A stretch of 64,000 bases of DNA from a virus. This document shows, piece after piece, positions 2,673 through 56,992 of this stretch; the first letter of the stretch is position 1; each line of letters opens with the position of its first letter. Where the stretch lies: positions 55,162 through 119,161 of IMG/VR virus record IMGVR_UViG_3300044946_000175, one strand, 5' to 3'. Both the position numbers and the translations under genes were made by a program. The notes beneath the pieces are model-generated. The model was not told where the DNA came from, did no database searches, and saw only the letters and a program-made list of their open reading frames with translations.

Positions 2673-2796
2673 AAATTCCGTCAAGAATCCGTAGCACGAT
2701 AACCCCATCTTCTGCGAGTGTATTTCCAGAGGCTTCTGCGCTCCATTACTTTCGATAGAATAAAACCGATCAATAACCTGAACCTGGAAAGTTCAT

Positions 2797-3306
2797 ATGA
2801 ATGCTAGACCGAACGCGAAAGAATTGAGAGAAAAGGCTGCTGAACTCAAAGAGGCAAAGAATGCCATCAAGACGGTGCCTCTTACCGTCGAGAACGTGGA
2901 TCGTCTGGATGCGACCACTTCAAATGCAAAAGCATCTGCCAAACCGAAGCCGGAAAAGAAGCAAAAACCACCAAAAGACCCAAAAGACATAAAACCACCC
3001 CAACCGCCAGACCCTAACTCCAAGAGAAGTCAGAAAAAGCTCAAAGGACGGCTCCCGCACGGTTCCAGGTTCGACAATTTCGTTTATGATGGCGAGAAAG
3101 TGGAGTGGACGGGGATACTCACAGTTCCTGGATTCGAGGTATTTAGGGACCGGGCCAATGGCGTGATGACTCTGTTTTCCAGACTTGATAAAGCCTATCG
3201 AAGAGCGGCGAAGGAACGAGAGTCTGCCTCACCCGTTCCACCATCGCCAGAGCCGAACTGCGAGCAGCACACTGGCAATGATGACCAAAATCGCGATGGC
3301 GAGTAG
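2797..3306 (+). CDS. hypothetical Lys/Pro-rich protein
   Basis: 169-aa ORF. Confidence 0.6.
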   Translation: MNARPNAKELREKAAELKEAKNAIKTVPLTVENVDRLDATTSNAKASAKPKPEKKQKPPKDPKDIKPPQPPDPNSKRSQKKLKGRLPHGSRFDNFVYDGEKVEWTGILTVPGFEVFRDRANGVMTLFSRLDKAYRRAAKERESASPVPPSPEPNCEQHTGNDDQNRDGE

Positions 3307-3357
3307 TATCGGTAGTTCCAGAGTTGCATATCCAGCTTTGCGTTTCATGGATTTTTC

Positions 3358-3386
3358 TTGACCTCGAAACTTGATGGGCATAGACT
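3358..3386 (+). promoter_or_regulatory. sigma70 promoter for candidate large ncRNA
   Basis: TTGACC-N17-TAGACT. Confidence 0.65.
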
Positions 3387-3389
3387 TTT

Positions 3390-3950
3390 GGGGTGGATTA
3401 AACGGAAAGAGCGAGTTTTCCCGCAAAGAAAAGACTCGCTCGACCGTCACGTCAGTGTGAGCACATTCTATGTGACACACCGACCATAAGCAATTCCACA
3501 ATTCAAAAATTCTTTGCGTATAGCCTCCAGGTTTGAGGCGACGGAAATGCCATACATCTGCGGACTGGCGAGCAATAGCGGTATGGGAACCGGCTTGGCG
3601 TTGTAGTAGCGGGAGTTCCCCACTACCAGCCAAAGTCGGCTGGCTGCATTTTCTCGATTGAAAAGAGGGAATGCTATCGGTTTGTTGAGGTGACGGGTGG
3701 GTGAATTTATTTCACTGGCTTTGTCCAACTGTGCAAGCAGTTCCATGCGTTCGGGGGTAGGTGGCTGGCGCTCCTTAATAGAGCATGGAGTCGTGGGGGT
3801 CAGCATGGGCTGGCGTCCGGAGCGACTGTAAACAAGACTCCGGACCAAACGAAAGCGAGGATGAGGGGTGACGCATTCGTGAAGTAGCTCCGTATCGTTT
3901 CAAGATCATTTAAATCTTGGAATGGTACGGGGCTACTCCGCTCAGAATCC
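3390..3950 (+). ncRNA. candidate large structured ncRNA (~560 nt)
   Basis: no credible + strand ORF; about 10 consecutive hairpins, several with G-U pairs valid only on + strand (e.g. 24-bp stem 3883-3937). Confidence 0.6.
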
Positions 3951-4012
3951 AGGATCAACATTCCATTTCAGAGTTGGTTGTGTTTAGCTTTGTGTGTTGG
4001 AAGTGAGGTGTT

Positions 4013-4573
4013 TTGATGGATGCAGTACAATATGCGAAATACCTAAGATCGGATCATTGGATTGAGTTCAGCAGTCATGTCCGGAAGAGTCGATGCTTTT
4101 GTTGTGGTGTTGAGAAGACTGGTTTGCACGTCCATCACATAACATACGAACGTGTTGGGAAAGAACTGGAACAGGATGTTGTGACAGTATGTAATGGATG
4201 TCACATCAAAATCCACAAGAGAGTCAAGAGAGGAACCAAACTTGAAGATGCACATTTTGTCGTCAAGAAGTCGATGACGAGTCGAGAGGGACACCTGGTC
4301 GGGAAGTGGTGTTCGTGGCCGCGCCTTTTGAATCCGTCACTACAACAAACCATCGGCAAGTTGAAAGCCTTTCTAGTTCTCAAGGGTCTTTTGGAAGATG
4401 GGAGGGCATCAAAGCTCGCATACCGCTTGAAGTTCGCTCGGGTAGTAAATGGTAAAGAGAGATGGCACAAAATGCGGTTCATTGATATGGCGAGAGCGGA
4501 TCGTAAGATATGGAGGTGTAGGCAACAAGGAAAGGCAATTTATCCATCGCTCCGCAAACGCGCTCTTATTTGA
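4013..4573 (+). CDS. HNH endonuclease
   Basis: YLRSDHW...CFCCG...LHVHHITY...VCNGCHIKIH. Confidence 0.85.
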   Translation: MMDAVQYAKYLRSDHWIEFSSHVRKSRCFCCGVEKTGLHVHHITYERVGKELEQDVVTVCNGCHIKIHKRVKRGTKLEDAHFVVKKSMTSREGHLVGKWCSWPRLLNPSLQQTIGKLKAFLVLKGLLEDGRASKLAYRLKFARVVNGKERWHKMRFIDMARADRKIWRCRQQGKAIYPSLRKRALI

Positions 4574-4583
4574 AAAGGCAAAA

Positions 4584-5060
4584 ATGAAAATTCAACTCTT
4601 CTTCGATGGCGGATGTACTCCCCGTAATCCAGGAGGAACCGGTACGTGGGCCTACGTCATCAAAGGTCTGACTGAAGCCGACGTGGAAGGGTACGGTGCA
4701 TTACAGGCTTCTCCCAAGATGACCAACAACGTCGCGGAGTACGTGGCGCTTGGGAAGGGTCTGCGATTTCTGGCCGACTACCAGAGTACCGACGCGGCAA
4801 AGGTCTTGACGAGCCTGGAGATAAGAGGCGACTCCAAGCTGGTTGTAAACCAACTGACCGAAGAGTGGAAGTGCAACAAGGAACATCTTCAGAAGCTTCG
4901 TGCGCGCTGTTGGGAGTTGTTGGAGCAGATCAAGTGTTCGTGGACTACGGAGTGGATTCCTCGTGAAGAGAACTCACGAGCCGATGCTCTGGGTCACAAG
5001 GCTTATACCGAAGCGACCGGACAGCCTTATCCCGATACGATCAACGGCAGGCGGATATAA
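4584..5060 (+). CDS. rnhA: ribonuclease HI family protein
   Basis: FDGG..RNPG, TNNVAEY, RGDSKLVVNQ, WIPREENSRADAL; start reassigned to ATG 4584. Confidence 0.9.
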   Translation: MKIQLFFDGGCTPRNPGGTGTWAYVIKGLTEADVEGYGALQASPKMTNNVAEYVALGKGLRFLADYQSTDAAKVLTSLEIRGDSKLVVNQLTEEWKCNKEHLQKLRARCWELLEQIKCSWTTEWIPREENSRADALGHKAYTEATGQPYPDTINGRRI

Positions 5061-5350: not shown

Positions 5351-6034
5351 ATGGAACTTTCCGAGCAAGTCTGGTGGGAAGTAGAAGCCGACAACGGTAA
5401 GTGGGCAGGTCTGGTCGATCCGACCTGGATCACTTCCACAGTGATTGCTCTGTGTCAGCAGATCGAAAAGAGTAAAGACGCCTCGCTCCTGCCGATCCTG
5501 GCCGATGCGCTCCATATGGATGCTGGTTGTGAGGATGCACTGTTGTTGAAGTTCTTGCGCGAGAACGTGGTCATTAGAATCGCGAGTATAAATGGGCCAA
5601 TGGGATCTTATAAATGTCGTAGAGATAAAGGCATGTCCCGCGAAGTCATCGCCAGTCAAATAGGCAAATTGAGTCGTTTTTTTGATGGTGGTGATCATGT
5701 GTTTATTGACGATTGGAAAGCTTACCAGGACGCCAAGCGAAAGCACTATCTCGCGCAGGAGCAGTGCAAAAACTATCTCACGAATCCAGACATCAAGGCC
5801 GCTCTCCTGGCGCTCCCTCATCCCCATCCGGCTTTTAGGCAAAGTAAGAAATGGTGGGATTATTGCTGCTGGTTTACTGAAAAGCGGCTCTATCCGACTC
5901 TGCTTCGCAAATTGAAGGAATTGATGAAGGAGAACAAGAGTTTTGCCGTAGTGGTTGAGGAATCGAAGCACGAGAGAGTCGCCACTGCTCCGCTTGTGTC
6001 TGGGCAGAGAGTGTTAGACTGGGATGATGTTTAG
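5351..6034 (+). CDS. protein with Gemmataceae-type PILADAL-DAGC motif
   Basis: WITSTVIALC...LLPILADALHMDAGCED; family-A promoter 5316-5343 upstream. Confidence 0.7.
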   Translation: MELSEQVWWEVEADNGKWAGLVDPTWITSTVIALCQQIEKSKDASLLPILADALHMDAGCEDALLLKFLRENVVIRIASINGPMGSYKCRRDKGMSREVIASQIGKLSRFFDGGDHVFIDDWKAYQDAKRKHYLAQEQCKNYLTNPDIKAALLALPHPHPAFRQSKKWWDYCCWFTEKRLYPTLLRKLKELMKENKSFAVVVEESKHERVATAPLVSGQRVLDWDDV

Positions 6035-6099
6035 AGTATTGGAGAATAAAAGGCAGAATTTTAATTTGCCTTTTGTGGTTTGGGGAGTAAGATGAATTT

Positions 6100-20859: not shown

Positions 20860-21330
20860 ATGTTTGGTACATCTGCTAACGCGATTGATCGGTTTGATGA
20901 GATTTTGGGTAATGCTGAAGCCGAAATGCAAACTGGTTGTTTGTCTTTAGACACGTTTTTGCTTTTACAGCGGTTGTGGTCCGCACGAACATTTGGACCA
21001 CAATCGCATCGTGGGCCAATGGGACCATTGAAGCATCTGAAAAAGGAAGTTGAGGAGGCTTTGAATTCCGTTGCGACTACCGTTAATGCTGCAAGTCCAC
21101 AAGATGCAGCAGACTGTCGAGAAATTCAGATTGAAGAACTGGCTGACTGTTTTTTCCTGGTCGTCGATGCAGTCTGGCGTTCTGGAGTCAGTCCGGTGGA
21201 GTTTCGGCAAGCACTGACGACCAAGCTCATCAAGAATCGAAACAGAGCGTGGCCCGACTGGAGAGAGAAGGACGCTAACGATGCAATTGAGCATGTGAGG
21301 AATGAGAATGACGTCGGTGATGGAATATGA
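20860..21330 (+). CDS. DUF550 dATP/dGTP pyrophosphohydrolase (MazG-like)
   Basis: WSARTFGP...GPLKHLKKEVEE...EELAD...NRNRAWPDW...AIEHVR. Confidence 0.82.
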   Translation: MFGTSANAIDRFDEILGNAEAEMQTGCLSLDTFLLLQRLWSARTFGPQSHRGPMGPLKHLKKEVEEALNSVATTVNAASPQDAADCREIQIEELADCFFLVVDAVWRSGVSPVEFRQALTTKLIKNRNRAWPDWREKDANDAIEHVRNENDVGDGI

Positions 21331-22556
21331 GCGACGGCGAGTTCTTCTCCCGGTCGGAAGCCATGAAGTTCCGGCCTTCTGTTTCACTCATTCCGGCATG
21401 TGAAAGGTGTCAGCTTTTTCGGCGCGGGTGTGTGACACCTAAGATGCCGACTTCAGGACGTGGTGAAAAGAAAATCCTCATCGTGGGAGATCACCCCGGC
21501 GAATCCGAAGATCGAGAGGGCAAGCAGTTTGTTGGTCGTTCTGGACAATACCTGCGTGGCATCCTCTACGACTGTGGTCTGGACCCCAATCGCGATTGCG
21601 TGTTCACCAATGCTACTATATGCTATTCTTCTGACATTCGTGAGCATAAGACTGCCCTTCAGGACTGTCTGCCGAATCTGCTGAAGACGATTCGCGTGCA
21701 TCAGCCGGAAATAATTCTACTCTTGGGTTTGGAAGCCGTATCGAGTCTTGTCTCTCACCTGTGGGGAGAGAGTGTAGGAGATTCGATAGCCAAGTGGGTC
21801 GGGTGGAGGATTCCGGTACGTTCAAATAATACTTGGGTGTGTTGTTCGTGGAACCCTGCTTACATCATTCGGGATCGAGATAGCGGTAAGCAGAACAGGG
21901 CTTTAGAATTACACTTCAAGCGGCACATAAGAGAGGCGCTGGCTTTGTCTGGACGTCCTTGGCCGAATGGTGCGCCTGACTATGCCAAACAGATCGAGAT
22001 AATTCTGGACCCGGTGGAGGCTGCACAGCGACTCGCAGGGTACGCGATGGCACCAGCCATCGCGTTTGATTTTGAAACGACAACACTAAAACCTCAAGGA
22101 CAGCACGCGGAGATAGTTTGTTGCGGCATCAGTGACGGCAAAGAAACAATTGCCTTTCCGTGGTGTGCGGCAACAAGAGACGCCATGAAGTCGATACTCG
22201 AAGATTCTAATATTGGTAAGATCGGCGCAAATTCAGGATTCGAGCATGTTTGGGCGGCAGAACAGGCTGATATTCAAATACAAGGATGGTTGTGGGACTG
22301 TTGTTTAGACTCACATCTGCTTGACGCACGGGCAGGAATTACGAATGTTGCTTTTCAGGCGTGGTGTCGTCTTGGAGTCGAATCTTATTGGCATCACATT
22401 GCGCCATTTCTTGAATCAAAAGAAAGTGGCGGGAATTCTCCTAACAGAATTCGGGAAGTGAATCCTTACGATCTTGCTTTATATTGTGGCCAAGACGCAC
22501 TTATTGAATGGGGTATAGCCATGAGTCAAATGAAAGAAATGGGGGTCGAGATATGA
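21327..22556 (+). CDS. uracil-DNA glycosylase (family 4) fused to 3'-5' exonuclease; N-terminal half of split DNA polymerase
   Basis: CERCQL..GC, ILIVGDHPG..ED..GKQFVGRSG; Exo I FDFETT; Exo III YCGQDA. Confidence 0.85.
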   Translation: MSDGEFFSRSEAMKFRPSVSLIPACERCQLFRRGCVTPKMPTSGRGEKKILIVGDHPGESEDREGKQFVGRSGQYLRGILYDCGLDPNRDCVFTNATICYSSDIREHKTALQDCLPNLLKTIRVHQPEIILLLGLEAVSSLVSHLWGESVGDSIAKWVGWRIPVRSNNTWVCCSWNPAYIIRDRDSGKQNRALELHFKRHIREALALSGRPWPNGAPDYAKQIEIILDPVEAAQRLAGYAMAPAIAFDFETTTLKPQGQHAEIVCCGISDGKETIAFPWCAATRDAMKSILEDSNIGKIGANSGFEHVWAAEQADIQIQGWLWDCCLDSHLLDARAGITNVAFQAWCRLGVESYWHHIAPFLESKESGGNSPNRIREVNPYDLALYCGQDALIEWGIAMSQMKEMGVEI

Positions 22557-23293
22557 ACAGCAGCGAACGATGTGGAACTTGTCCGGACCCAGACGCCAGC
22601 GAGATTCAGGCCATAGAAATCAGTTTTGCGATTCCGGTCTTTATGACTCAGGACCAGCAAGGACGATTGATTCGTCTCGTCGATGACATTATCGATCAGC
22701 CGTGGAATGAACCGCTGGAAGGCGTCCACTGGATGGCAGAGGTCGGCGCAAAACCGAACTGGTCGCAGATCGATGCTGCACTGCTCGAAAAGCCAGTCGA
22801 TCCGAATGCCCCCGCGACTGGCGAGCCGACTTTCGATGACAGTGTATTTAGTATTGGAAGTTGCGCTCGTGGATTTGTGAGTGAAAAGGAAAGAGATCAA
22901 GTGCTTGAGCGAAGGACCAAACCAAAGCGGGAATTGGTCCAGGCTGAGGCTCTGGCAAAGTTGTTTTATGAAGCATATGGTCGCAATGCTCCAACGCCGA
23001 CTTTTGAGGATAGTATGGGTCTCGTGCATAGTGCGACTGTTATTCCGTGGGAGGGAATTTCTGAAGATCACAAGGATTTGATGATTGCGGCTTGTAAGGA
23101 GATTCAGGTGGAGTTGGATCGAATTGCTTCGGAGAAGTGGAGGCGCAGACGGAAAAAGGAAGACGAAAGAGTTGCCGCTTTACGGGCGATTTTTAAGTGG
23201 TGCGATGCGGACGATGAGACACCACAAGGCCAATGTATATTTGAGATTGAGCGTCTGGCGAAGGCTGCATTAGGCATACCGGAAGTAGGTTGA
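22553..23293 (+). CDS. hypothetical protein inserted between polymerase halves
   Basis: 246 aa, overlaps both neighbours by 4 nt. Confidence 0.65.
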   Translation: MNSSERCGTCPDPDASEIQAIEISFAIPVFMTQDQQGRLIRLVDDIIDQPWNEPLEGVHWMAEVGAKPNWSQIDAALLEKPVDPNAPATGEPTFDDSVFSIGSCARGFVSEKERDQVLERRTKPKRELVQAEALAKLFYEAYGRNAPTPTFEDSMGLVHSATVIPWEGISEDHKDLMIAACKEIQVELDRIASEKWRRRRKKEDERVAALRAIFKWCDADDETPQGQCIFEIERLAKAALGIPEVG

Positions 23294-24774
23294 GTATGTA
23301 CCTAACTACTCTTGATGCTCGTCGTTTGTTTGCTGAGGGAAACCTTGTGCTATCGGCCATGTCGCGATGCGGCATGCGCGTGGATCACGGCTATCTGCAA
23401 ACCGTAACCAAACTGGCCGACGACAAGATACGAGAGCATGAGGCTGAAGTGCGCGTATGCCCGGCATACAAGGACTGGCAGCGACTCTATGGCGAAAAGA
23501 CCAACCTTGCCGCTCCAGCACAATTAGCCCGACTCATCTTTAAAGAATACGGTCACACCTACAAGCCGGTCATCTTTACCGACTCGGAAGAGCGAGAGTC
23601 GGCAAGCGAAAAGGCATTGGAGCACGTCGATCATCCACTCGTGAAGGCGTATTTTCGCGCCAGCAAATTTCGAAGACTACGCGGGACTTACTTGGGTGGA
23701 ATTCAGCGGGAGATGGTAGAGCATTCTCCTGGGATCTGGCTCATCCATCCATCATTCAACCTGAACACAGTCAAAACATTCAGAAGCTCATGCAATCGCC
23801 CGAACGTTCAAAATCAGTACAAACGTGACCCAGAATTCATGGAACTGATGCGTCGAGTGTTCATTCCGAGACCTGGACGACAGAATATTGAAATTGATTA
23901 TTGGTCAAACGAAGTTGCTATGGCCGCTCGGTACACATTAGATCCAAACGCCGTGGCGGAGTGCAACGATCCGACCAAAGATCCCCATCGCGATACTGCC
24001 TGCAAACTGTTCTTTTTGAAACCACACGAAGTGACCAAGACTGTGCGGAACATTGCTAAGTCTCCGTTCGTGTTTGCTCAGTTTTACGGTGACTACTATG
24101 TAAACTGCGCCGTCAATATCTGGCACGAATTACAGGATGTAAAGAACGTCATGGTGAAGGATTCAACCGAAACCATTCTGGACCGACTGGCAAAGAACGG
24201 TATCACGAGGCGGGGGTTGTGCAGCCCCAAAGAAAGGCCAACTCCGGGAACATTTGAAGCACACGTCAAGAGTGTAGAAGATTGGTACTGGAATGATAAA
24301 TATCGAGTTCATGCGGCTTGGAAAGATTCGTGGTGGAACAGATACCAAGAAACTGGTGGTTTCATCACCAAGGTCGGCTTCGCGGTCAACGATGTGCGGG
24401 TGAGAAATGAAGTCATCAACTGTCCTATTCAATGCGATGCTTTCCAACTCCTGCTCTGGTCTTTAATCCGGAAAGCCAAGCTGATTCGTAAGTATAAGAT
24501 GGATGTACTATTGATAGACGAAGTGCATGATTCTGATAACGCTGAAGTTTATCCGAATGATAGAGAGAACTACATTGAGATGGCCAGAAAGGTCATGACT
24601 GAGGACATCGTAAAGGCATGGCCCTGGCTTGAAGTTGTAAAACCAAGAGTTGAAATAGAAGCATGTCCAATAGATAGTGCATGGGCGGACAAGATGGAAC
24701 TGATCCGAAGTGGTGATGTGTGGCAGCCGAAAGACATCACAAAATGGAAGGAGAATTTCGGACTGTGGGTATGA
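23290..24774 (+). CDS. polA: family A DNA polymerase (polymerase domain only)
   Basis: TFRSSCNRPNVQN; motif A IDYWSNE; motif B RNIAK..FVFAQFYG; motif C VHDS. Confidence 0.9.
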   Translation: MSMYLTTLDARRLFAEGNLVLSAMSRCGMRVDHGYLQTVTKLADDKIREHEAEVRVCPAYKDWQRLYGEKTNLAAPAQLARLIFKEYGHTYKPVIFTDSEERESASEKALEHVDHPLVKAYFRASKFRRLRGTYLGGIQREMVEHSPGIWLIHPSFNLNTVKTFRSSCNRPNVQNQYKRDPEFMELMRRVFIPRPGRQNIEIDYWSNEVAMAARYTLDPNAVAECNDPTKDPHRDTACKLFFLKPHEVTKTVRNIAKSPFVFAQFYGDYYVNCAVNIWHELQDVKNVMVKDSTETILDRLAKNGITRRGLCSPKERPTPGTFEAHVKSVEDWYWNDKYRVHAAWKDSWWNRYQETGGFITKVGFAVNDVRVRNEVINCPIQCDAFQLLLWSLIRKAKLIRKYKMDVLLIDEVHDSDNAEVYPNDRENYIEMARKVMTEDIVKAWPWLEVVKPRVEIEACPIDSAWADKMELIRSGDVWQPKDITKWKENFGLWV

Positions 24775-29733: not shown

Positions 29734-30990
29734 GTGAGCAATTCTAATCCGCTTTGCCTTTTCGATCAACCCAATCCAGAAAAAGAATTTACTCAAGAAG
29801 AACTCCACGAGATACGAGGCAGCGGTATCGACTGGGAACCGAAAATACAATTTTCTTTTTCGTCTTTGAGGCAGAACGAAGAATTGCAAAATATGATCCA
29901 AACAATCCGAGACGGTGGGAACTGGTTTATGGTGCCTCGATGCTTCACCAAGATCATGTCCATCGAAGCGTCTTTTGTCCTTGGATCTCTTATCAATCTC
30001 GGAGCAAATAAATCGACCAAAGAAGGGTGGATTGTCTGCACTCGCGAATTCTTGAAAGATGAACTTAACATCACAAAGCATACCCAAAATCGTATATTCA
30101 AGGAGCTACAAAGACTCGGACTCATCAGTATTCGAATGGACAAAGCACACCACTTTCGTCTAATTCACATCGACGTTTTGAAGATATTCGAGCGACTGGA
30201 GGAGTTAGGCTTGGCCGTAATAGAGGACGAGGCTCGTCCGCAAACCAGGATGAGCTTGGCCGCAAACGCGGACGAGGCGGCTACGAATTCGACCATCGAA
30301 GCAGATAACCTCGTCCGCAAACCAGGACGAGCTAACGACCACCACGACCGCAAACCCGGACGAGGCTCGTCCGCAAACCAGGACGAGCTAACGACCACCA
30401 CGACCGCAAACCCGGACGAGGCTCGTCCGCAAACGCGGCCACTATTAAGTATAAGGGAAGAAGTAAAAAATGAAGAAAAAGGAAAAGGAGGAGGAAAAGT
30501 CGCTCCTTCTCCTTCATCTTTTTCTCATCTTTCTGACAAACCTAAACAGCCCGCATCCAACGATCCGTCCAGCGAAGAAGCAGAGAAGAGGAAGGAGGCT
30601 TCGCCCTCCTCTCTCTCGTCTCTTTCAGAGCTTGCCTCTCGTATGTCTGAGATACGTCAGCGCTTTGGTATACCCGAACCACTCGATATGGATTGGAACT
30701 CGATTGTAGCCAAACTGGACAGGGCAGCGGCCAAACGACCTGACTTGTTTGCGCTACCCGAGGAAGTAGAAACCTCGACTCCTCCTCTTACGGCCAAACA
30801 AATGTGGGATATGTTACCAAACACAAAATACCTGGAGACTGGCGAGTTACCGGAAGAAGAGCAAATGCCCGAACCCGAATATGGTCCACCGCGTTATCAG
30901 AAGAAAGAGAGACCGTACGTTGATGTGGATGGGATCGTGGGGAAGGTATTCAAGAAGAACGGAGAACTCCGTCACCCCAAGAGGGAATAA
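29734..30990 (+). CDS. replication initiator-like protein (HTH) containing internal origin
   Basis: CTREFLKDELNITKHTQNRIFKELQRLGLI winged-HTH; internal DNA repeats as in lambda O-type genes. Confidence 0.65.
   Translation: MSNSNPLCLFDQPNPEKEFTQEELHEIRGSGIDWEPKIQFSFSSLRQNEELQNMIQTIRDGGNWFMVPRCFTKIMSIEASFVLGSLINLGANKSTKEGWIVCTREFLKDELNITKHTQNRIFKELQRLGLISIRMDKAHHFRLIHIDVLKIFERLEELGLAVIEDEARPQTRMSLAANADEAATNSTIEADNLVRKPGRANDHHDRKPGRGSSANQDELTTTTTANPDEARPQTRPLLSIREEVKNEEKGKGGGKVAPSPSSFSHLSDKPKQPASNDPSSEEAEKRKEASPSSLSSLSELASRMSEIRQRFGIPEPLDMDWNSIVAKLDRAAAKRPDLFALPEEVETSTPPLTAKQMWDMLPNTKYLETGELPEEEQMPEPEYGPPRYQKKERPYVDVDGIVGKVFKKNGELRHPKRE
30225..30535. repeat. iteron array and purine/pyrimidine-asymmetric tract (putative ori)
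   Basis: 56-nt period (30310, 30366, 30422), core CCGCAAAC..GGACGAG, followed by A-rich then T/C-rich tract. Confidence 0.75.
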
Positions 30991-41124: not shown

Positions 41125-41128
41125 ACCA

Positions 41129-41235
41129 TGTGCTTTTGCCAAGCGCGGCTGCAATGGGCACTATTACCAGTGCGTAATAGGTCGCTCGCAGAACGCCGGA
41201 AACACTGGTCCAGAAGAAGGCGAACAGCCACGGCT
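41129..41235 (+). ncRNA. tracr/omega-like scaffold RNA, copy 1
   Basis: close copy of 42201-42307 with compensatory stem changes; fused to first repeat. Confidence 0.75.
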
Positions 41236-41786
41236 CTGGAGAGACCTTTGGAATCTGAAGGAGCCCGCAAGGGAATCTGAAGTGAAGGTGCAAGCAAGCC
41301 AAAAAACTTACCAATGGGATCTGAAGGTGTAAGCAAGATCTTGTCGTGCATCTTGTATCCGACGGTCGTTTTCCGGAGAGACTTTCGGGATCTGAAGGAT
41401 CGAGCAAGACTAGATTGGGCTTGCAGAGTTCAGATCAGAGGAGCCTTCGGAATCTGAAGGAACTTGCAAGGCTAAAATTTCAGCATTGCAAAATGTGAGA
41501 AAAATCACTCGGAGAGACCTCTGGGATCTAAAGGAACTTGCAAGACCAAACCATCGGCCCGACACCAGGGCAATCTTCCACCGGAGAGACCTCTGGGATC
41601 TAAAGGAACTTGCAAGCTGATACTCCAGAACTTTTAAAACTCTGCGAAGTTCTGGCCGGAGAGACCTTTGGAGTCTGAAGGAACTTGCAAGGTGAGCCGC
41701 CGAGATCCGGAGACATTGGAAGTGCTTGCCGGAAAGACCTTTGGGATCTGAAGGAGCCCGCAAGGGGATCTGAAGGTTCAAGCAAG
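41236..41786 (+). CRISPR. CRISPR array 1 (heterogeneous repeats)
   Basis: full repeats at 41236, 41373, 41435, 41509, 41581, 41656, 41729 plus half repeats at 41272, 41316, 41765; spacers 26-39 nt. Confidence 0.9.
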
Positions 41787-42094: not shown

Positions 42095-42200
42095 AACAGG
42101 GGTCTGGCAGTTATTCAGGCCACTTTTTGCGAGTGGTGAAGTGGTGAACAGATCACTGGTAACCGCTCGCGCAATCCTAACAGGAGATACACAGTGACTT

Positions 42201-42307
42201 TGCGCTTTTGCCGAGCGCGGCTGCAATGAGCACACTCATCAACGCATGAGTGGCCGCTCGCAGAACGCCGGAAACACTGGTCCAGAAGAAGGCGAATAGC
42301 CACGGCT
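42201..42307 (+). ncRNA. tracr/omega-like scaffold RNA, copy 2
   Basis: see copy 1; preceded by CAGGAGATACA (family-B promoter variant). Confidence 0.75.
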
Positions 42308-43041
42308 CTGGAGAGACCTTTGGAATCTTGAAGGTGCAAGCAAGGTGTGACATTGAAGATGGTTCCGTTTTTGACTTTGACATCCGGAAAGATCTTTGGG
42401 ATCTAAAGGAACTTGCAAGGCCTCGTCTCGGGGATTGGGTTTACGCTGGTTGGTTCACCGGAAAGACCTTTGGGATCTAAAGGAACTTGCAAGCGATCGT
42501 GCTCGACTCACCTGTCGGACCAAGCTTGCCGGAAAGACCTTTGGGATCTAAAGGAACTTGCAAGCTGCACGGGAATCTGTGACAGCCGCCGGAAGTTTCC
42601 CGGAAAGACCTTTGGGATCTAAAGGAACTTGCAAGGAGTCGTCTCACGTTGAAGGATCGGCACGAGATAAACCGGAAAGACCTTTGGGATCTAAAGGAAC
42701 TTGCAAGACCGAGTAACACCATCAGCGGGAACGGGCCGTCGGGCTCCGGAAAGACCTTTGGGATCTAAAGGAACTTGCAAGTACCAAACGGTTCGATTGA
42801 GGCTTCCACAGTGGACCGGAAAGACCTTTAGGATCTGAAGGAACTTGCAAGCCATCCATGAAGTCTTTGATGCCTTCATCGTCTTTCCGGAAAGACCTTT
42901 GGGATCTAAAGGAACTTGCAAGGTGACAGAGTATCCCGGAGTGAGTGCTCGGAAAGACCTTTTGGATCTAAAGGAACTAGCAAGCTGTAAGGCCCCTCAA
43001 TGAGGACCGAAAATACTTTTGGAGTCTGAGGAATTTGCAAT
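42308..43041 (+). CRISPR. CRISPR array 2, 11 repeats / 10 spacers
   Basis: consensus CCGGAAAGACCTTTGGGATCTAAAGGAACTTGCAAG; spacers 39,38,35,35,36,38,34,35,26,22 nt; degenerate terminal repeat 43007-43041. Confidence 0.97.
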
Positions 43042-43088
43042 AATATAAAGGAAGGAGAAGACAAAATCATTTTTGAGGAAAATGAATA

Positions 43089-51391: not shown

Positions 51392-53260
51392 ATGCGTCAA
51401 CCTACACTCTACCACCTTGTCAACTTGAGTAATAAGCTCGCACATCAGCTTCACTATCTCAAAGACCACATCCACTTGCATGGGAATGCTCCCGTTGGTG
51501 GCAGTGAGGAGGCTCACCTCTGGACACCGGAGGAGGAGCAGGAAGCCAACTGGATGGCCGAGCGCGCCATGCGCAGGAGGCCGACCGCGCAACATCCCAA
51601 CGACGAGTATTTGCATATTCAGGGCAATCGACCAGCGGAGCAGTATGCTTCTAGAGGTGATATTCCTGGACCAGGAAACACATTTGACTATCCGACTGAG
51701 ATCTATCCAGCAGATATCGGACATCCGAATGTCGGACAGGCATTAGGGCACGGTTTGCAGGCGCGCGACATGAATCGACGAAATTCTGCAATTGGTGGAC
51801 GAATCAAAGCACATACACAAGCCGCCAAACGATTTCGTAATGCGGGAGATGCATTCGGTCTTGCGCCGCAGACTTTATCGCCAGCATCCAGACGAAAAGA
51901 ACGACGTCGGGCTGGTCAAATGCCTCATTTTGGTGATTACTATGCAGGGACGGATATTCCAATCGGATACGCTGAATCTCCCAAAGACGTGTCGGACTTC
52001 GCGGATCGCGCTCGCAGACCTCAATCCCGTCGCCGGGCCGCGCGAGTATTAGAACACGCAGCCGAAGAGAACACACGTCACGGTTATGGCAATCATCCTG
52101 CCGTGATGCGAATGCGTGATGATGCCGCACGGCAGGAGAGGGAGGCCGAGCGTGAGTCGCACCCCGCACCACGATATTCGCGGTATTCGGATTCAACATC
52201 CAATCCTTTTCATTCGATTTCTTACGGGAGACAGGCGACTTGCGGACAGTGCAATGAACGTTGGTATATCGCCACTGATTCCATCGACCTCGTCTGTCCG
52301 CGTTGTGGAGCTAATTCGACGAAGTATGCCGTGACCGACCAGCCGGGCATTTATGGCCCCGCCACGGCAGCACCGGCTCCGGGCGGTCATGGGCCGCGTC
52401 GTTTGCCTTCCGGACACGATCCGCGAGCGGAAGAAGCGCTGCCGATGGACCGTATGCCTCCTCGTCGTCCGCTGAGACCATCCACGAGACCGGACCCTCG
52501 ATATCCCTATCCCGACACCGGACCAAAAGCACGGCGAAATCCGAACTATGCACGCTACGCCGACAATCCACTCCAACAAACCTACATCCAGGATCGGCGA
52601 TTGCACGAGAATCGTCTCCGGCAGGTTTTTCCAGAGTGGGATGAACTCCATCCTCACGACCAGCAGATGATCTGGAACAAGACCTATCGCACGGGTCCGG
52701 CGCGTCATGGAGTTGGAGTGGGACATCCGACCAACGAAGAGGACTTGGCAGGTTGGCGAGACGAAATGAATCAAAGACAAATTAGTGCTCACCACGATCC
52801 ATTCGATCTGAGCAAGAACCACGCCACGAGCGAGTTTGACGACTACCTGGCCGATACACACGAGCAGAGCAGCCCCGAAGAGTGGGCTTCTCATGTGGAT
52901 CGAATGGAACAAGAATCTGGCGCGAATCGTCGTCCATATAATCCACCCGAGCAGTTACCGGAAGGATTCGAAGAGCCGACCCAGGCATGGCATGAGCATA
53001 TACGTAGAGCTAATCAACCCACTCAGGCGGCTCGTTACTCGCGAACGGACTATCACGGTCGTTTGTGCCGTTTGCGCGAGCGGTTGGCCGCACTGCGTCA
53101 GCCGACGATGTACGACGATGAGATGGACGGTGGCATGGATGAGGAGGGCATGAGCTACGCCGATAATGTCTCTGGGATCGGACAGGATGAGAGGTCGGGC
53201 TACAATACAGGTGAAGCCGAGCCGACGCAGCGTATGTTTCACGGTCACGGAAGCTTTTGA
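51392..53260 (+). CDS. large low-complexity protein with repeated YA/YS motifs
   Basis: 622 aa, GGAGG RBS, P/R/H-rich. Confidence 0.7.
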   Translation: MRQPTLYHLVNLSNKLAHQLHYLKDHIHLHGNAPVGGSEEAHLWTPEEEQEANWMAERAMRRRPTAQHPNDEYLHIQGNRPAEQYASRGDIPGPGNTFDYPTEIYPADIGHPNVGQALGHGLQARDMNRRNSAIGGRIKAHTQAAKRFRNAGDAFGLAPQTLSPASRRKERRRAGQMPHFGDYYAGTDIPIGYAESPKDVSDFADRARRPQSRRRAARVLEHAAEENTRHGYGNHPAVMRMRDDAARQEREAERESHPAPRYSRYSDSTSNPFHSISYGRQATCGQCNERWYIATDSIDLVCPRCGANSTKYAVTDQPGIYGPATAAPAPGGHGPRRLPSGHDPRAEEALPMDRMPPRRPLRPSTRPDPRYPYPDTGPKARRNPNYARYADNPLQQTYIQDRRLHENRLRQVFPEWDELHPHDQQMIWNKTYRTGPARHGVGVGHPTNEEDLAGWRDEMNQRQISAHHDPFDLSKNHATSEFDDYLADTHEQSSPEEWASHVDRMEQESGANRRPYNPPEQLPEGFEEPTQAWHEHIRRANQPTQAARYSRTDYHGRLCRLRERLAALRQPTMYDDEMDGGMDEEGMSYADNVSGIGQDERSGYNTGEAEPTQRMFHGHGSF

Positions 53261-53841: not shown

Positions 53842-54066
53842 TTAGTACGGTATTTCATTCAATTCTTGCAGGCGTGTCTTGATCCACGCCCATCTTTTGT
53901 AGTCTGCGTTCACCGGTTCTTTCTTTATATGCTCTTCCAGGCGGTTCATTTCCGCTGTCAGAGTTTCCTTCTCTCGCACTAGTGAATGTGCGATTAACCA
54001 AGCGTATGCTTGAGGGAACAGTTTTTCGAACTCGTTCCAGTCATTGTGTAGATAAGAAGTGTTCAT
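53842..54066 (-). CDS. hypothetical protein
   Basis: AAAGGCAAAAC-ATG on minus strand. Confidence 0.6.
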   Translation of the reverse strand: MNTSYLHNDWNEFEKLFPQAYAWLIAHSLVREKETLTAEMNRLEEHIKKEPVNADYKRWAWIKTRLQELNEIPY

Positions 54067-54302
54067 GTTTTGCCTTTGTATTTCAAGGATCGATACCGAA
54101 CACCCCAACGAGTTTTGTAAGGACGGTCGGGATTTGCGACCTCCTGACCACAGCCGATGCAAATCGAGTATTGTTTGGCACCAAACAGACGGACTTGGAC
54201 AGCGGTTTGGTCTTCGTCATCCACTGGCTGTTTGCAGATGGAACATTCCATGATGAGAGTCATACGCGGATGATGCATCAGGGAGATAGTGAGGCGATTC
54301 AT
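54063..54302 (-). CDS. Zn-finger hypothetical protein
   Basis: CSIC...CIGC; coupled. Confidence 0.55.
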   Translation of the reverse strand: MNRLTISLMHHPRMTLIMECSICKQPVDDEDQTAVQVRLFGAKQYSICIGCGQEVANPDRPYKTRWGVRYRSLKYKGKT

Positions 54303-54538
54303 GTTTTGTCTTTCAGTTTTTGAATTCTGGATTGTATATTCGCAAGCTGGTGGATCATCAGGCCGGTTATTTGACTGATTTCTGGGTCGTTCTTTCTCCA
54401 CCTTTCGATTTCAGATTCGATCTCCGTTGAGGCTGCGTCAAGTGCGGCGTTCCAGGCAGCACGTGCGTAACAAATCGTGCTAGTTCCTCCTGCGTAATGA
54501 GACACGTCTGCCTTGAGCCAGTTATCGAAGGCATTCAT
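54299..54538 (-). CDS. hypothetical protein
   Basis: AFDNW...ARAAWNAA; coupled. Confidence 0.6.
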   Translation of the reverse strand: MNAFDNWLKADVSHYAGGTSTICYARAAWNAALDAASTEIESEIERWRKNDPEISQITGLMIHQLANIQSRIQKLKDKT

Positions 54539-54903
54539 TTTTCCCCTCCTGGCGGAATTTCCTTCACATCCACATAAATCCGATCTGGAGGCGGAAAAAT
54601 ATATTTTTCGAGTGCAGGACAACACCAGCCTCTAAGTCCCGTTTCCGGCCACTTGTACCAATTTCCGCCACAGTCCTCTTCCTGTCGTTCCAGGACCACC
54701 TTCGCGCCGGGGAATGGATCTTTGCTGAACAGGAGGATGAATCCATCCTCGCGGTAGTTGGAAATCTTGAGATCGGTGCAGAGTCGTTCGATCATGTCCG
54801 GCATTCCGGCCACGAATGCTTCTTTGTTTAGGCCGACAGACTCGTCGTCGAAGACCCAAGATCCCCACCAGAGATAAGGTCGGATTGTGTTGATCTGGTT
54901 CAT
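54535..54903 (-). CDS. conserved hypothetical protein (DUF6717-like)
   Basis: I.PY...G.WVFDD..VGL.KE.FV.G...FS..PFPG...GNWY......GW.CPAL..Y. Confidence 0.7.
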   Translation of the reverse strand: MNQINTIRPYLWWGSWVFDDESVGLNKEAFVAGMPDMIERLCTDLKISNYREDGFILLFSKDPFPGAKVVLERQEEDCGGNWYKWPETGLRGWCCPALEKYIFPPPDRIYVDVKEIPPGGEK

Positions 54904-54913
54904 GTTTTACCTT

Positions 54914-55144
54914 TTAGTGTAAGCAACAGACCACCGAAGCAATTTCAGAACTTCGCCAGATTGGTTCGCTGTTTTGTGGTAAGTGACATCCTCTCGCAAG
55001 GATGCGACCTGCGCAACGAGCGCAGACAATTAATGTATCGCCTTCTGTGGTCGGAACGCTCCAACCGACGAGGTTAGACGCAAGCTGGCCGGGCGATTGC
55101 GGTGCATGCTCCAGGGATGTTTTTAGGTATTCGATGGTGGTCAT
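54914..55144 (-). CDS. hypothetical protein
   Basis: 76 aa, GGAG RBS. Confidence 0.55.
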   Translation of the reverse strand: MTTIEYLKTSLEHAPQSPGQLASNLVGWSVPTTEGDTLIVCARCAGRILARGCHLPQNSEPIWRSSEIASVVCCLH

Positions 55145-55222
55145 AATTACTCCAATTCGGGGTTAAGGTTTCGGCCATTCGTGGCCCACTCCCGTGAGAG
55201 TAGGGCGCGAGAGGTCGGGGGA

Positions 55223-55411
55223 TTAGGCTTTGCGGACCTCGTGTCGGAATCGAGGGAGCGGTCCACCACGATTTGAGCCGAACATGTTGGCGTTGGCGCA
55301 CGCGGTCTGAGCGGATTCGTAGGCCACATGATCCAGGCCGCCGAAAGTGTGCAGCACAGTCTCAGTGTCATTCGTGCAGTCGATTCGTATTACGGTGTAT
55401 GTCGTGTTCAT
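55223..55411 (-). CDS. hypothetical protein
   Basis: GGAG RBS; minus-strand family-A promoter 55463-55490. Confidence 0.55.
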   Translation of the reverse strand: MNTTYTVIRIDCTNDTETVLHTFGGLDHVAYESAQTACANANMFGSNRGGPLPRFRHEVRKA

Positions 55412-55495
55412 CTGTCGTCTCCAGTTTGGGGGTCGGGGTATCAGTCGCGTCCTGTCTACCTATATATACAGCACGAATTTTAAAAGGCAAATAAA

Positions 55496-55759
55496 TTATT
55501 TGTCTTCCACTTTTTCCAGAAACACGAAATCACTCGTGGGATAAATCCGCTCGTCGCCGATTCTGCAAACCTCCCAGTGACTCATGTTTTTGGTTGCGTG
55601 AACGATTTCTTTGGCGCGTCCGAGATAGGATGCCCAATAGTAGCCCTCTTTCGGTTTGAGCGTCTGCGGTTCCGTAGCAATTGCCTTCAGAGCTTCCATC
55701 CCTCGCGGAGAGGCGGCTCCGGGGTCTCTATGTCGGTCCATTCGTGTTTTGTGGCCCAT
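55496..55759 (-). CDS. hypothetical protein
   Basis: PKEGYYWA motif, GGAG RBS. Confidence 0.55.
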   Translation of the reverse strand: MGHKTRMDRHRDPGAASPRGMEALKAIATEPQTLKPKEGYYWASYLGRAKEIVHATKNMSHWEVCRIGDERIYPTSDFVFLEKVEDK

Positions 55760-55782
55760 TTCAATTCTCCAGGTAAGAGGTA

Positions 55783-55962
55783 TTAATCATGAACGATATA
55801 GGCGTTGATGCAGAAGACATTAAACAACCATGACCACATCATATCTTCGTGGTCGTCGTCTCGTATTGGATAACGAGCAAAATTCGATGCTGGAAATGCT
55901 CCAATTGCATCGCTTGCGGCTTTTCCATTCGATGTTTCGGCATTCCATTCAAGGTATTTCAT
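55783..55962 (-). CDS. hypothetical protein
   Basis: AGGAG RBS; minus-strand promoter about 55998-56027. Confidence 0.5.
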   Translation of the reverse strand: MKYLEWNAETSNGKAASDAIGAFPASNFARYPIRDDDHEDMMWSWLFNVFCINAYIVHD

Positions 55963-56167
55963 CTTCGTCTCCTGTGTGGTGTTTCGTCTTACACATCGAT
56001 CATACACTACACCAGGAAAGAAGGCAAACCAAAATCTTGCCTTTTTAACTATCTTGCAATTAAACCATGATAAGATGATCAATTAGGCAATTTTAATATT
56101 TGCCTTTTCGATTTTGGATGGTACAAAGAATGTGTCGAGACAAAAAACCTAAACCAAAGGAATCTTT

Positions 56168-56894
56168 ATGAAGGCTATTTCCAGTTACAAAATCGTGGAC
56201 AACAAGATTGTAGTCAGCACTCCCTACTGCGGTGTCGTGGTCGAACAGTGCCGCAAATGGAGCGGCAAATTCGACAAAGCGAGCGGCGGGTGGGTTCTGC
56301 CACTCAGTCGCCTGAAGTCAATTCAGGAGCAGATCGGCGAGGATCAGGATGATTTGGTTGAGGTTGAAGTGAGTGAGGGGATTGAGCCAAAGGTCCGTTT
56401 GTCTTTTGATGAGAAGCAGGAGACCGGCTGTGAGACTCTTGAAGAAGCTATCATCAAGTTTCCGGGAAAGTTCGACGAGGCAATTGCCGGACTTCCGGGT
56501 TACGACGTCACGGATAATTGTTATCATTTGGGTTGGCACGTCATCGCGACCGCGACGCGGTCGCGATGACGCTGCCGACGTTTATGCGGATCTGATTGAT
56601 GGAGAAATACCAGATTCGGGCGGCAGTGCGAAGAATCCGACCGTCAGTGGGGAACAGTGTGTGTTTCGCCTGTGGATTCCGCGCGACCTGGCTCTGGATC
56701 GTGGTTTTGTCGTGGTTGGCGATCCGAAGGCGACGATTGTTAAAGAGTCCAATTCTCCGCCTCCTCAAACTGTATTTGAGGTGAGTCCGGCTGTGGCTGC
56801 CACTATCCACGAGATCGCCAATCAGGAGGGCGTTCCTCCTGAAGCAATCATTACAATGGCTATTGAATCGTTTAGAATTCGCCACCAATCGTGA
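56168..56894 (+). pseudogene. phage gene interrupted by +1 frameshift inside a perfect palindrome
   Basis: deleting one C at 56550-56551 joins ...HVIAT to RRGRDD...DSGGSAKNP. Confidence 0.6.
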
Positions 56895-56992
56895 TTTTTG
56901 ATGAAAAGGCAAATAGCTATTTGCCTTTTCGTTTTCGTGGAGTATATAAATGATGTCGAGACAAAAACCCAAACCAAAAGAGAGGATCAAAC

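Follow-up and report, generated by a model that had tools for sequence, protein, structure and literature searches.

A stretch of phage DNA directly upstream of an HNH endonuclease gene carries an excess of predicted secondary structure that is beyond composition-matched chance. The feature is real and unusual; as far as could be judged it codes for no protein, and it is outside the described RNA families. It spans about 550 nt (~3390-3941) and appears to be a hairpin-dense, non-protein-coding part of an accessory island, the + strand of which we tentatively read as a structured untranslated leader, spacer or processing region belonging to an HNH cassette that the phage acquired. In the absence of relatives, folding energies by themselves do not distinguish this reading from its rivals.

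The window, by which we mean the whole stretch of 64,000 nucleotides that was analysed, corresponds to bases 55162-119161 of a virus record that is 119,161 bases long and has an estimated completeness of 85%, and positions in the text and in Table 1 are counted from its first base. Its provenance is soil: three soil metagenome runs, from three studies, contain all or part of the stretch, with zero differences, one of them possibly being the source, and RNA runs are absent among the sequencing runs listed as carrying it. The phage is an orphan of ~140 kb from soil. Nearly all genes lie on the + strand, and 87% of the 119-kb genome is under + ORFs of at least 80 aa. Downstream of the genes that flank the gap there is a replication module with an SNF2 helicase (12642), a DnaB-like helicase (17126), a UDG-exonuclease protein and PolA (21327-24774), the polymerase domain of PolA being encoded separately from the UDG-exonuclease protein; an AAA+ clamp-loader-like protein, a UvsX-like recombinase (34487) and the large terminase (61937) are found further downstream. 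The HNH protein matches the Pfam HNH family at E 0.0038, which is under the curated cut-off, and PHROG HNH families at a best E of 6.9e-07, and the HNH domain is the only one that Pfam gives on its 185 aa. The codon score of its gene is 0.048, compared with 0.167 +/- 0.054 for the long genes of the phage, and its codon usage is foreign.

Table 1. Features in and around the gap upstream of the HNH gene, with positions in the window.
Feature	Position	Strand	Details
ORF169, left neighbour of the gap	2797-3306	+	169 aa, no family
Imperfect direct repeat TTyCAGAGTTG-N7-9-AGCTTTGyGT, left copy	3316-3343	+	
Promoter-like hexamers TTGACC-17-TAGACT	3358-3386	+	9/12 consensus matches
Two adjacent strong hairpins	3398-3490	both	z -6.02 (+), -5.80 (-); 0/200 shuffles each
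Minus ORF (rival gene reading)	3468-3848	-	126 aa; 92 aa from ATG at 3746
Predicted multi-branch central domain, 305 nt	3494-3798	+	z -2.37 (+), -2.22 (-)
Inner hairpins of the central domain	3586-3680	both	z -3.6 (+), -3.7 (-)
Three local hairpins (3799-3814, 3815-3845, 3849-3880)	3799-3882	both	z -2.73 (+), -3.16 (-)
24-bp hairpin	3883-3937	+	arms 3883-3906/3914-3937; 4 G-U; 7-nt loop; no U tract after
Linker with HNH Shine-Dalgarno GAGGTG (4004-4009)	3938-4015	+	from sequence
Same direct repeat, right copy, just before the HNH RBS	3966-3995	+	
HNH endonuclease gene, downstream neighbour of the gap	4016-4573	+	185 aa
RNase H gene, after the HNH gene	4584-5060	+	~650 nt downstream of the structured stretch
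DUF6717, real minus-strand gene	54535-54903	-	GC skew +0.090 on own strand

The original prediction had listed 11 stem motifs and a pair of promoter hexamers, all of which are in place (11/11 motifs and both hexamers). Eight of the 11 stems are contained in the minimum-energy fold, which replaces GTGGATT/AATTCCAC, CCATAC/GTATGG and the AACTGT-GCAA-GCAGTT hairpin with alternatives. When 3390-3960 was folded on the + strand, an energy of -226.5 kcal/mol was obtained, against -186.3 +/- 7.3 kcal/mol for shuffled sequences (z -5.53; 0/100 as good, with 100 dinucleotide shuffles per strand). A terminal helix (3391-3396/3938-3943) closes the whole predicted fold, and the ensemble diversity of 70.2 is lower than that of all 20 shuffles compared (20/20), which indicates a better-defined ensemble. 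As a control across the genome, 1190 segments of 200 nt were folded and their energy was regressed on composition. The six + segments covering 3340-3840 rank 22, 82, 104, 93, 4 and 18 of 1190, and the running mean of the gap segments ranks first of 1185, so that this is the most structured 700-nt + stretch of the 119-kb record. Furthermore, its mean is the lowest among 14 ORF-poor gaps (-2.15; the next is -1.62 and most are near zero). Together, the genome-wide ranks and the comparison with other ORF-poor gaps show a real excess of structure that the intergenic DNA of this phage does not share in general, and the expectation of an unusually structured, noncoding stretch is supported. The gap had also been taken for the largest ORF-poor one; it is the third longest + gap in the window, being exceeded, among + gaps without an ORF of at least 80 aa, by 54324-56167 (1844 nt) and 42095-43088 (994 nt).

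The fold signal comes mainly from the two 5' hairpins and the unique 24-bp hairpin. The former lie at 3402-3447, where 3409-3419/3431-3441 make up an 11-bp core, and at 3451-3484, and have pair probabilities of 0.90-0.99; on the minus strand, the first of them is followed by a U-rich tail and has a terminator-like look. The central domain, the part that would make an RNA from here ornate, is only modestly structured: two of 100 shuffles are as good on the + strand and four of 100 on the minus strand, and the closing helices of the domain (3494-3499/3793-3798, 3555-3561/3757-3763 and 3581-3588/3741-3748) have pair probabilities of 0.8-0.9. The three local hairpins that follow contain an 8-bp perfect inverted repeat, GTCCGGAG/CTCCGGAC. 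The 24-bp stem, made of 20 Watson-Crick and four G-U pairs with a mean pair probability of 0.98, belongs to the longest hairpin of the 119-kb genome, in which 28 transition-compatible pairs were counted, the next longest having 19.

For the 24-bp stem a dependence on the + strand had been proposed as well, and such a dependence holds for the long hairpin alone. At 3879-3941 it reaches -38.8 kcal/mol (z -10.57) on the + strand and -26.7 kcal/mol (z -7.10) on the minus strand, a difference of 12 kcal/mol that makes it the sole element clearly preferring +; the stretch as a whole folds nearly as well on the other strand, 3390-3960 giving z -5.27 on the minus strand with 0/100 shuffles as good. 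With a strand-neutral stem finder, eight G.T and five A.C wobble positions were found, which does not differ from the genome background (p 0.42). Composition supports the + strand as the sense strand, independently of folding: phage genes have more G than C on their sense strand (GC skew 0.092 +/- 0.083 overall and 0.137 +/- 0.060 in the window), and the gap itself has more G than C on the + strand, like phage sense strands.

We found no coding evidence on the + strand of the gap. Its three frames contain 7, 10 and 12 stops, the longest + ORF has 44 aa (P 0.025 in shuffles), and the + codon scores are negative. Recoding is ruled out, since every + frame is interrupted by all three stop codons, and a pseudogene was likewise rejected, the 10 stop-to-stop frames having no Pfam match and matching PHROGs only at E >= 0.028. 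When the gap was compared by tblastx with the closest related record, G001, only short pieces were obtained (E >= 0.019), none of them at the syntenic place.

That the element would belong to no known RNA family is supported. Rfam 15, with 4227 families that included GOLLD, ROOL, HEARO, OLE, RNase P, tmRNA, 6S, group I and II introns and small ribozymes, gave no match at gathering scores over the 64,000 bases; in E-value mode (E <= 10) over 3200-4700 it gave 11 junk matches, the best being mir-1420 (E 0.23), for which the score was 20.9 bits and the cut-off is 70. ARAGORN gave no tRNA or tmRNA genes in the window. Searches for relatives of the gap led to the same outcome in every collection covered: blastn against phage and plasmid records gave nothing similar, viral contigs scanned with ORF169, with SNF2 and with the polymerase, one protein at a time, yielded nothing usable, and two exact-pattern scans of viral contigs did not find the gap elsewhere. 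Using nhmmer, no homolog was found at the 12 loci where relatives of HNH or RNase H are encoded, nor in 80 polymerase-anchored viral loci from related phages (1.13 Mb), which were retrieved with an alignment of 28 polymerases; the best non-self matches of the phage polymerase have 50% identity. BLAST of the gap in five whole related records gave only pieces of 14-35 nt (E 0.04-0.74), a second copy of the gap is absent from the genome, and no description of the element was found in the literature searched.

The proteins flanking it are singletons at 90% identity, and a word-indexed search with the full-length HNH protein gave no other homolog. Relatives of the HNH domain were found at four loci, on viral or metagenome contigs, where they precede terminase-like ORFs; they are distant and without synteny, and at all four loci the ORF-free upstream stretch is at most ~340 nt. 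Relatives of RNase H were found at eight loci, six of them distinct, also distant and without shared synteny. The closest record, G001, shares ~40 proteins of 25-57% identity in conserved order. In this record the interval from the ParB-like gene to the homolog of ORF 5351-6034 consists of 1.4 kb of tightly packed ORFs and contains no gap, no HNH gene and no RNase H gene. An HNH domain is present in G001 inside a 268-aa ORF, with no such gap there, and a structure scan of the record peaks in GC-rich coding sequence at ~21.8-25.9 kb, with no ORF-free analogue. Since the syntenic interval is without the block, ORF169, the gap, HNH and RNase H together are, on the evidence of gene order, an accessory island. 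A partnership of the RNA with the downstream HNH protein had been suggested, and co-occurrence does not support it: none of the four HNH-relative loci has a comparable gap, and the HNH of G001 is gapless.

The stretch had been credited with a promoter of its own, and the hexamers are indeed present, but their match is at chance level: two sites of that quality were found against 1.6 +/- 1.3 expected in 2 kb, and 22 against 18.7 +/- 4.6 over 20 kb. The strong terminators that recur in this phage (AAAAGGCA-loop-TGCCTTTT) are found at 68-98 and 6046-6076; between 98 and 6046 there is no strong terminator, only weak consensus matches, and a U tract is absent after the 3' (24-bp) hairpin. Neither a better-than-chance promoter nor a 3' terminator thus marks out an independent transcription unit here, and because no terminator is found 3' of the element on the + strand, an RNA from this place would continue into the HNH gene unless it were processed.

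The reading as a structured leader of the HNH cassette, which we prefer while holding it tentatively, is drawn from several of these observations: the + strand is the sense strand of the operon, the next gene is a nuclease gene with foreign codon usage, the island is absent from relatives, the stretch lacks both a promoter and a terminator of its own, and simple, stable hairpins are its strongest elements. Most likely, the stretch would be co-transcribed with the + genes on either side of it, and in the HNH-RNase H message it would then serve in cis as a leader or spacer that is long, structured and untranslated. Protection of these 700 untranslated nt from degradation or from Rho termination may be the role of the two 5' hairpins and of the G-rich folded body. 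The 24-bp hairpin with its G-U pairs, a dsRNA long enough for RNase III, could be a processing or stability site, and might serve to uncouple or throttle the expression of the acquired HNH gene, in the way that RNA hairpins control homing-endonuclease genes in T-even phages. Should the reading as a cis-acting leader hold, the stretch would be another case of phage RNA structure fencing in an acquired nuclease gene, useful for annotation and unsurprising.

Long dsRNA duplexes are substrates of RNase III, and hairpins processed by this enzyme occur in polycistronic phage mRNAs, such as those of the T7 early region and of lambda; the T7 sites carry internal loops. Like them, the hairpin described here is a near-perfect 24-bp duplex, with G-U pairs and no U tract, situated between genes of one unit. 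Its 24 contiguous pairs provide the approximately two turns of uninterrupted dsRNA of an RNase III-type hairpin, its transcription being deduced from the operon context. The likeness to the T7 and lambda sites covers 3883-3937 only, where cleavage is a prediction.

A second comparison is with the endonuclease genes of T4-like phages, for which a published account describes control by hairpins, terminators and RNase E processing, both of free-standing and of intron-encoded genes, and, in the case of seg43(25), a very stable hairpin upstream of an RBS that is left uncovered (PMC2988022). Like those genes, the one studied here is an HNH-type phage nuclease gene that lies between unrelated genes and, judged by its sequence context, would depend on read-through transcription; as in the case of seg43(25), a very stable predicted hairpin stands upstream of its RBS and the RBS is uncovered. 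The differences from the T4-like hairpins are that the present element has ~550 nt and at least 10 helices instead of one hairpin and that pairing of its RBS is not above chance. The fold of 3938-4040 does pair the Shine-Dalgarno sequence, but with a z of -0.88 and 39/200 shuffles as good; an RBS-sequestering hairpin of the homing-endonuclease type is consequently not found there above chance level, and 63 nt separate the end of the long hairpin from the HNH RBS. These two points count against the leader reading, as does the size of the element, which far exceeds the needs of known endonuclease-regulating hairpins. Furthermore, the two strands fold about equally except in the long hairpin, so that the energies are just as compatible with DNA palindromes or with a minus-strand RNA, the promoter match does not exceed chance, and without homologs no selection on pairing is demonstrable.

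Some of the same observations are what would be expected if the stretch had no function at all and were a leftover in a fast-changing accessory island, its hairpins having arisen from local inverted duplications without selection. It is present in one phage lineage only, the three soil runs being identical, the locus is variable between relatives, and the central part is barely above chance. We nevertheless consider absence of function unlikely, since this is the most structured stretch of a genome so densely covered (87%) by + ORFs of at least 80 aa, and since all four non-Watson-Crick positions of the long stem are G-U on the sense strand (4/4, a small count), unlike what random decay of a palindrome would leave.

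The original prediction was of one large ornate noncoding RNA. Its structure and its noncoding + strand stand, but the single RNA with a promoter does not, in view of the z of only -2.37 for the central 305 nt and of the missing terminator and homologs. A free-standing, trans-acting structured + RNA of ~550 nt, forming a new class and arising either by processing of the operon transcript or by transcription from a promoter of its own, would agree with the overall z of -5.53 and rank of 1/1185, the long-range helices with probabilities of 0.8-0.9, the low ensemble diversity, the terminal helix enclosing the fold, the absence of coding evidence and the absence of a known family. The weakness of the central domain, with most of the signal residing in simple hairpins at both ends, argues against it, as do the chance-level promoter and the lack of a 3' terminator; moreover, none of the collections searched contained a relative, the closest phage is without the locus, and a functional class known from a single genome has an unlikely prior. 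On balance we judge this possibility to be a doubtful one. If it did hold, it would add a class of large phage RNA from soil, where almost none is known.

The known structured RNA associated with an HNH protein is HEARO, the omega-RNA of IscB, a protein that has a RuvC domain. The likeness is that a gene for an HNH-domain protein is immediately preceded, in its own orientation, by structured noncoding sequence; the differences are that there is no Rfam match at E <= 10, that the present protein has 185 aa and no RuvC, and that co-occurrence is absent in the HNH relatives. GOLLD and ROOL are large ornate RNAs that are often found in phages and prophages (PMC12286853). With these RNAs the stretch shares a length of several hundred nt, a phage location, a multi-branched predicted fold and the lack of an ORF, and it is unlike them in having no covariance-model match, no homologs and a central part only slightly better than shuffles. 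That the accessory island carries an undescribed multi-domain RNA of ~550 nt, possibly freed by cleavage at the 24-bp hairpin, is an idea to which we attach a low probability.

A related set of proposals places the function in the DNA. The stretch could be a transcription-primed origin, similar to ColE1 RNA II or to a T4-like R-loop, or an insertion scar between direct repeats. The replication primer RNA II of ColE1 has ~550 nt, is G-rich and forms many stem-loops, and the present stretch could speculatively be compared with it in all three respects, the more so as an RNase H gene is close by and as its 5' hairpins fold on both strands, as an antisense regulator would need. A bolder and speculative variant of the RNA reading is that the ~550-nt RNA primes replication with the phage's own RNase H. 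Unlike ColE1, however, the gap region gave neither origin features nor an antisense promoter when both were looked for. In favour of a DNA-level element are stems that work on both strands, a position at the head of the replication genes and near RNase H, a G-rich + strand that would favour RNA-DNA hybrids, and a flanking bipartite repeat that occurs in 119 kb only at 3316-3343 and 3966-3995, at a locus missing from the closest relative. The repeat is weak, with a local BLAST E of 0.08 (111x111), and the other expected signs are wanting in the gap: there are no notable iterons or tandem repeats, DnaA-box matches number 12 in the window against 11.7 expected with none in 3307-4012, and the GC skew does not turn, so that an origin of the iteron and DnaA-box type is not indicated there. 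As regards a MITE-like insertion, there is no terminal inverted repeat, the phage genome (to which the search was confined) holds one copy, and the flanking direct repeat is the weak one already mentioned. An element acting at the level of DNA is improbable in our view.

The same low standing is given to an orphan gene of 92-126 aa on the minus strand, running from 3848 or 3746 to 3468, for which the stems would be incidental or would form its terminator. Two ORFs, one of 126 and one of 134 aa, are open on the minus strand of the gap. In the first of these a public gene caller predicts a 92-aa gene; the ORF is the best of the six frames by codon score (margin 0.037; P 0.055 among chance ORFs), has a GC content by codon position of 0.55/0.47/0.55, close to the 0.56/0.44/0.53 of real genes, and is followed directly after its stop codon by the two strong hairpins and the U-rich tail. 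Its open length of 126 codons is reached in 10% of shuffles of the gap (P 0.10), and its absolute codon score is 0.058 against 0.167 +/- 0.054. A HMMER search of 1.84 billion representatives gave three matches, namely the ORF itself and two tandem-repeat proteins, its 90% cluster contains contigs of the same phage only, and it has no Pfam or PHROG family. A Shine-Dalgarno sequence precedes none of its four possible starts (0/4), compared with 73% of 92 real ORFs, and the minus strand from 2700 to 4700 has no promoter-like site. The ESM Atlas model (pLDDT 0.40, pTM 0.22) reaches a feature score of 0.76 at best, which is under the chance bar. The GC skew of its coding strand, -0.154, is also unlike that of genes, none of the 92 long genes being at or below -0.15. 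The hypothetical protein of 92 aa that was called here in public data has homologs limited to itself, no Shine-Dalgarno sequence and an ungenelike skew, and the call probably overlies a noncoding structured region.

When the whole 119-kb genome was folded in 200-nt windows, the top single windows on both strands fell at genome positions 52201-52500 (z -4.4), 2.7-3.0 kb ahead of the start of the window. This segment contains an ORF-free hairpin of 18 pairs (genome 52361-52401) that is not followed by a U tract; it is an element of the same type as the 24-bp hairpin at 3883-3937, the longest in the hairpin-dense stretch upstream of the HNH gene. Among the 14 ORF-poor gaps compared, the second most structured on the plus strand was that at 41125-41684 (mean z -1.62). 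By running mean over 700-nt stretches, the second rank on the plus strand went to 29840-30640 (-2.09), which falls within an ORF (29734-30990), has purine-rich and pyrimidine-rich arms (in a 19-pair hairpin at 30465-30522), and may be low-complexity coding sequence. The minus-strand maximum, at 56240-56940, holds a palindrome (56539-56571) whose 15-bp arms match perfectly around a loop of 3 nt.

A hairpin built as AAAAGGCA-loop-TGCCTTTT recurs in the window at ORF-free places, and is probably the standard intrinsic terminator of this phage; its copies are listed in the table. The first copy, on the plus strand, is overlapped by a perfect minus-strand sigma-70 consensus (TTGACA-16-TATAAT, 12/12, running from 107 to 80), and because of this overlap positions 68-107 have the look of a site of divergent control where the early/replication region begins.

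Recurrent hairpins and polymerase A region ORFs in the window
Feature	Window coordinates	Source
Recurrent hairpin, copy 1	68-98	hairpin scan
Recurrent hairpin, copy 2	6046-6076	hairpin scan
Recurrent hairpin, copy 3	55481-55509	hairpin scan
Recurrent hairpin, copy 4	56901-56932	hairpin scan
UDG + 3'-5' exonuclease	21327-22556	ORF in polymerase A region
261-aa ORF without family	22508-23293	polymerase A region
Polymerase domain	23290-24774	ORF in polymerase A region

The HNH gene (4016-4573) was probably acquired recently. Its codon usage is atypical (a score of 0.048, against 0.167 ± 0.054 for the long genes of the phage), its antisense frame outscores its own, and at the C terminus of the protein about 100 aa form a basic extension that belongs to no family.

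On the minus strand at 3229-3349, overlapping the acidic C-terminal end of the plus-strand ORF 2797-3306, lies a 40-aa ORF whose product, MKRKAGYATLELPILLAIAILVIIASVLLAVRLWRWWNG, resembles a membrane peptide with a single pass. This ORF has a codon score of -0.028, compared with +0.144 for the plus frame, and its PHROG match is weak (E 0.053). A few real minus-strand genes are present in the phage, since a small cluster of minus-strand ORFs at 53842-54903 has gene-like codon scores (0.089-0.207) and one of its members encodes a DUF6717 protein (E 2e-08).

DNA polymerase A is split over separate ORFs between 21327 and 24774, and in many relatives, too, the polymerase domain is found as a protein of about 470 aa.
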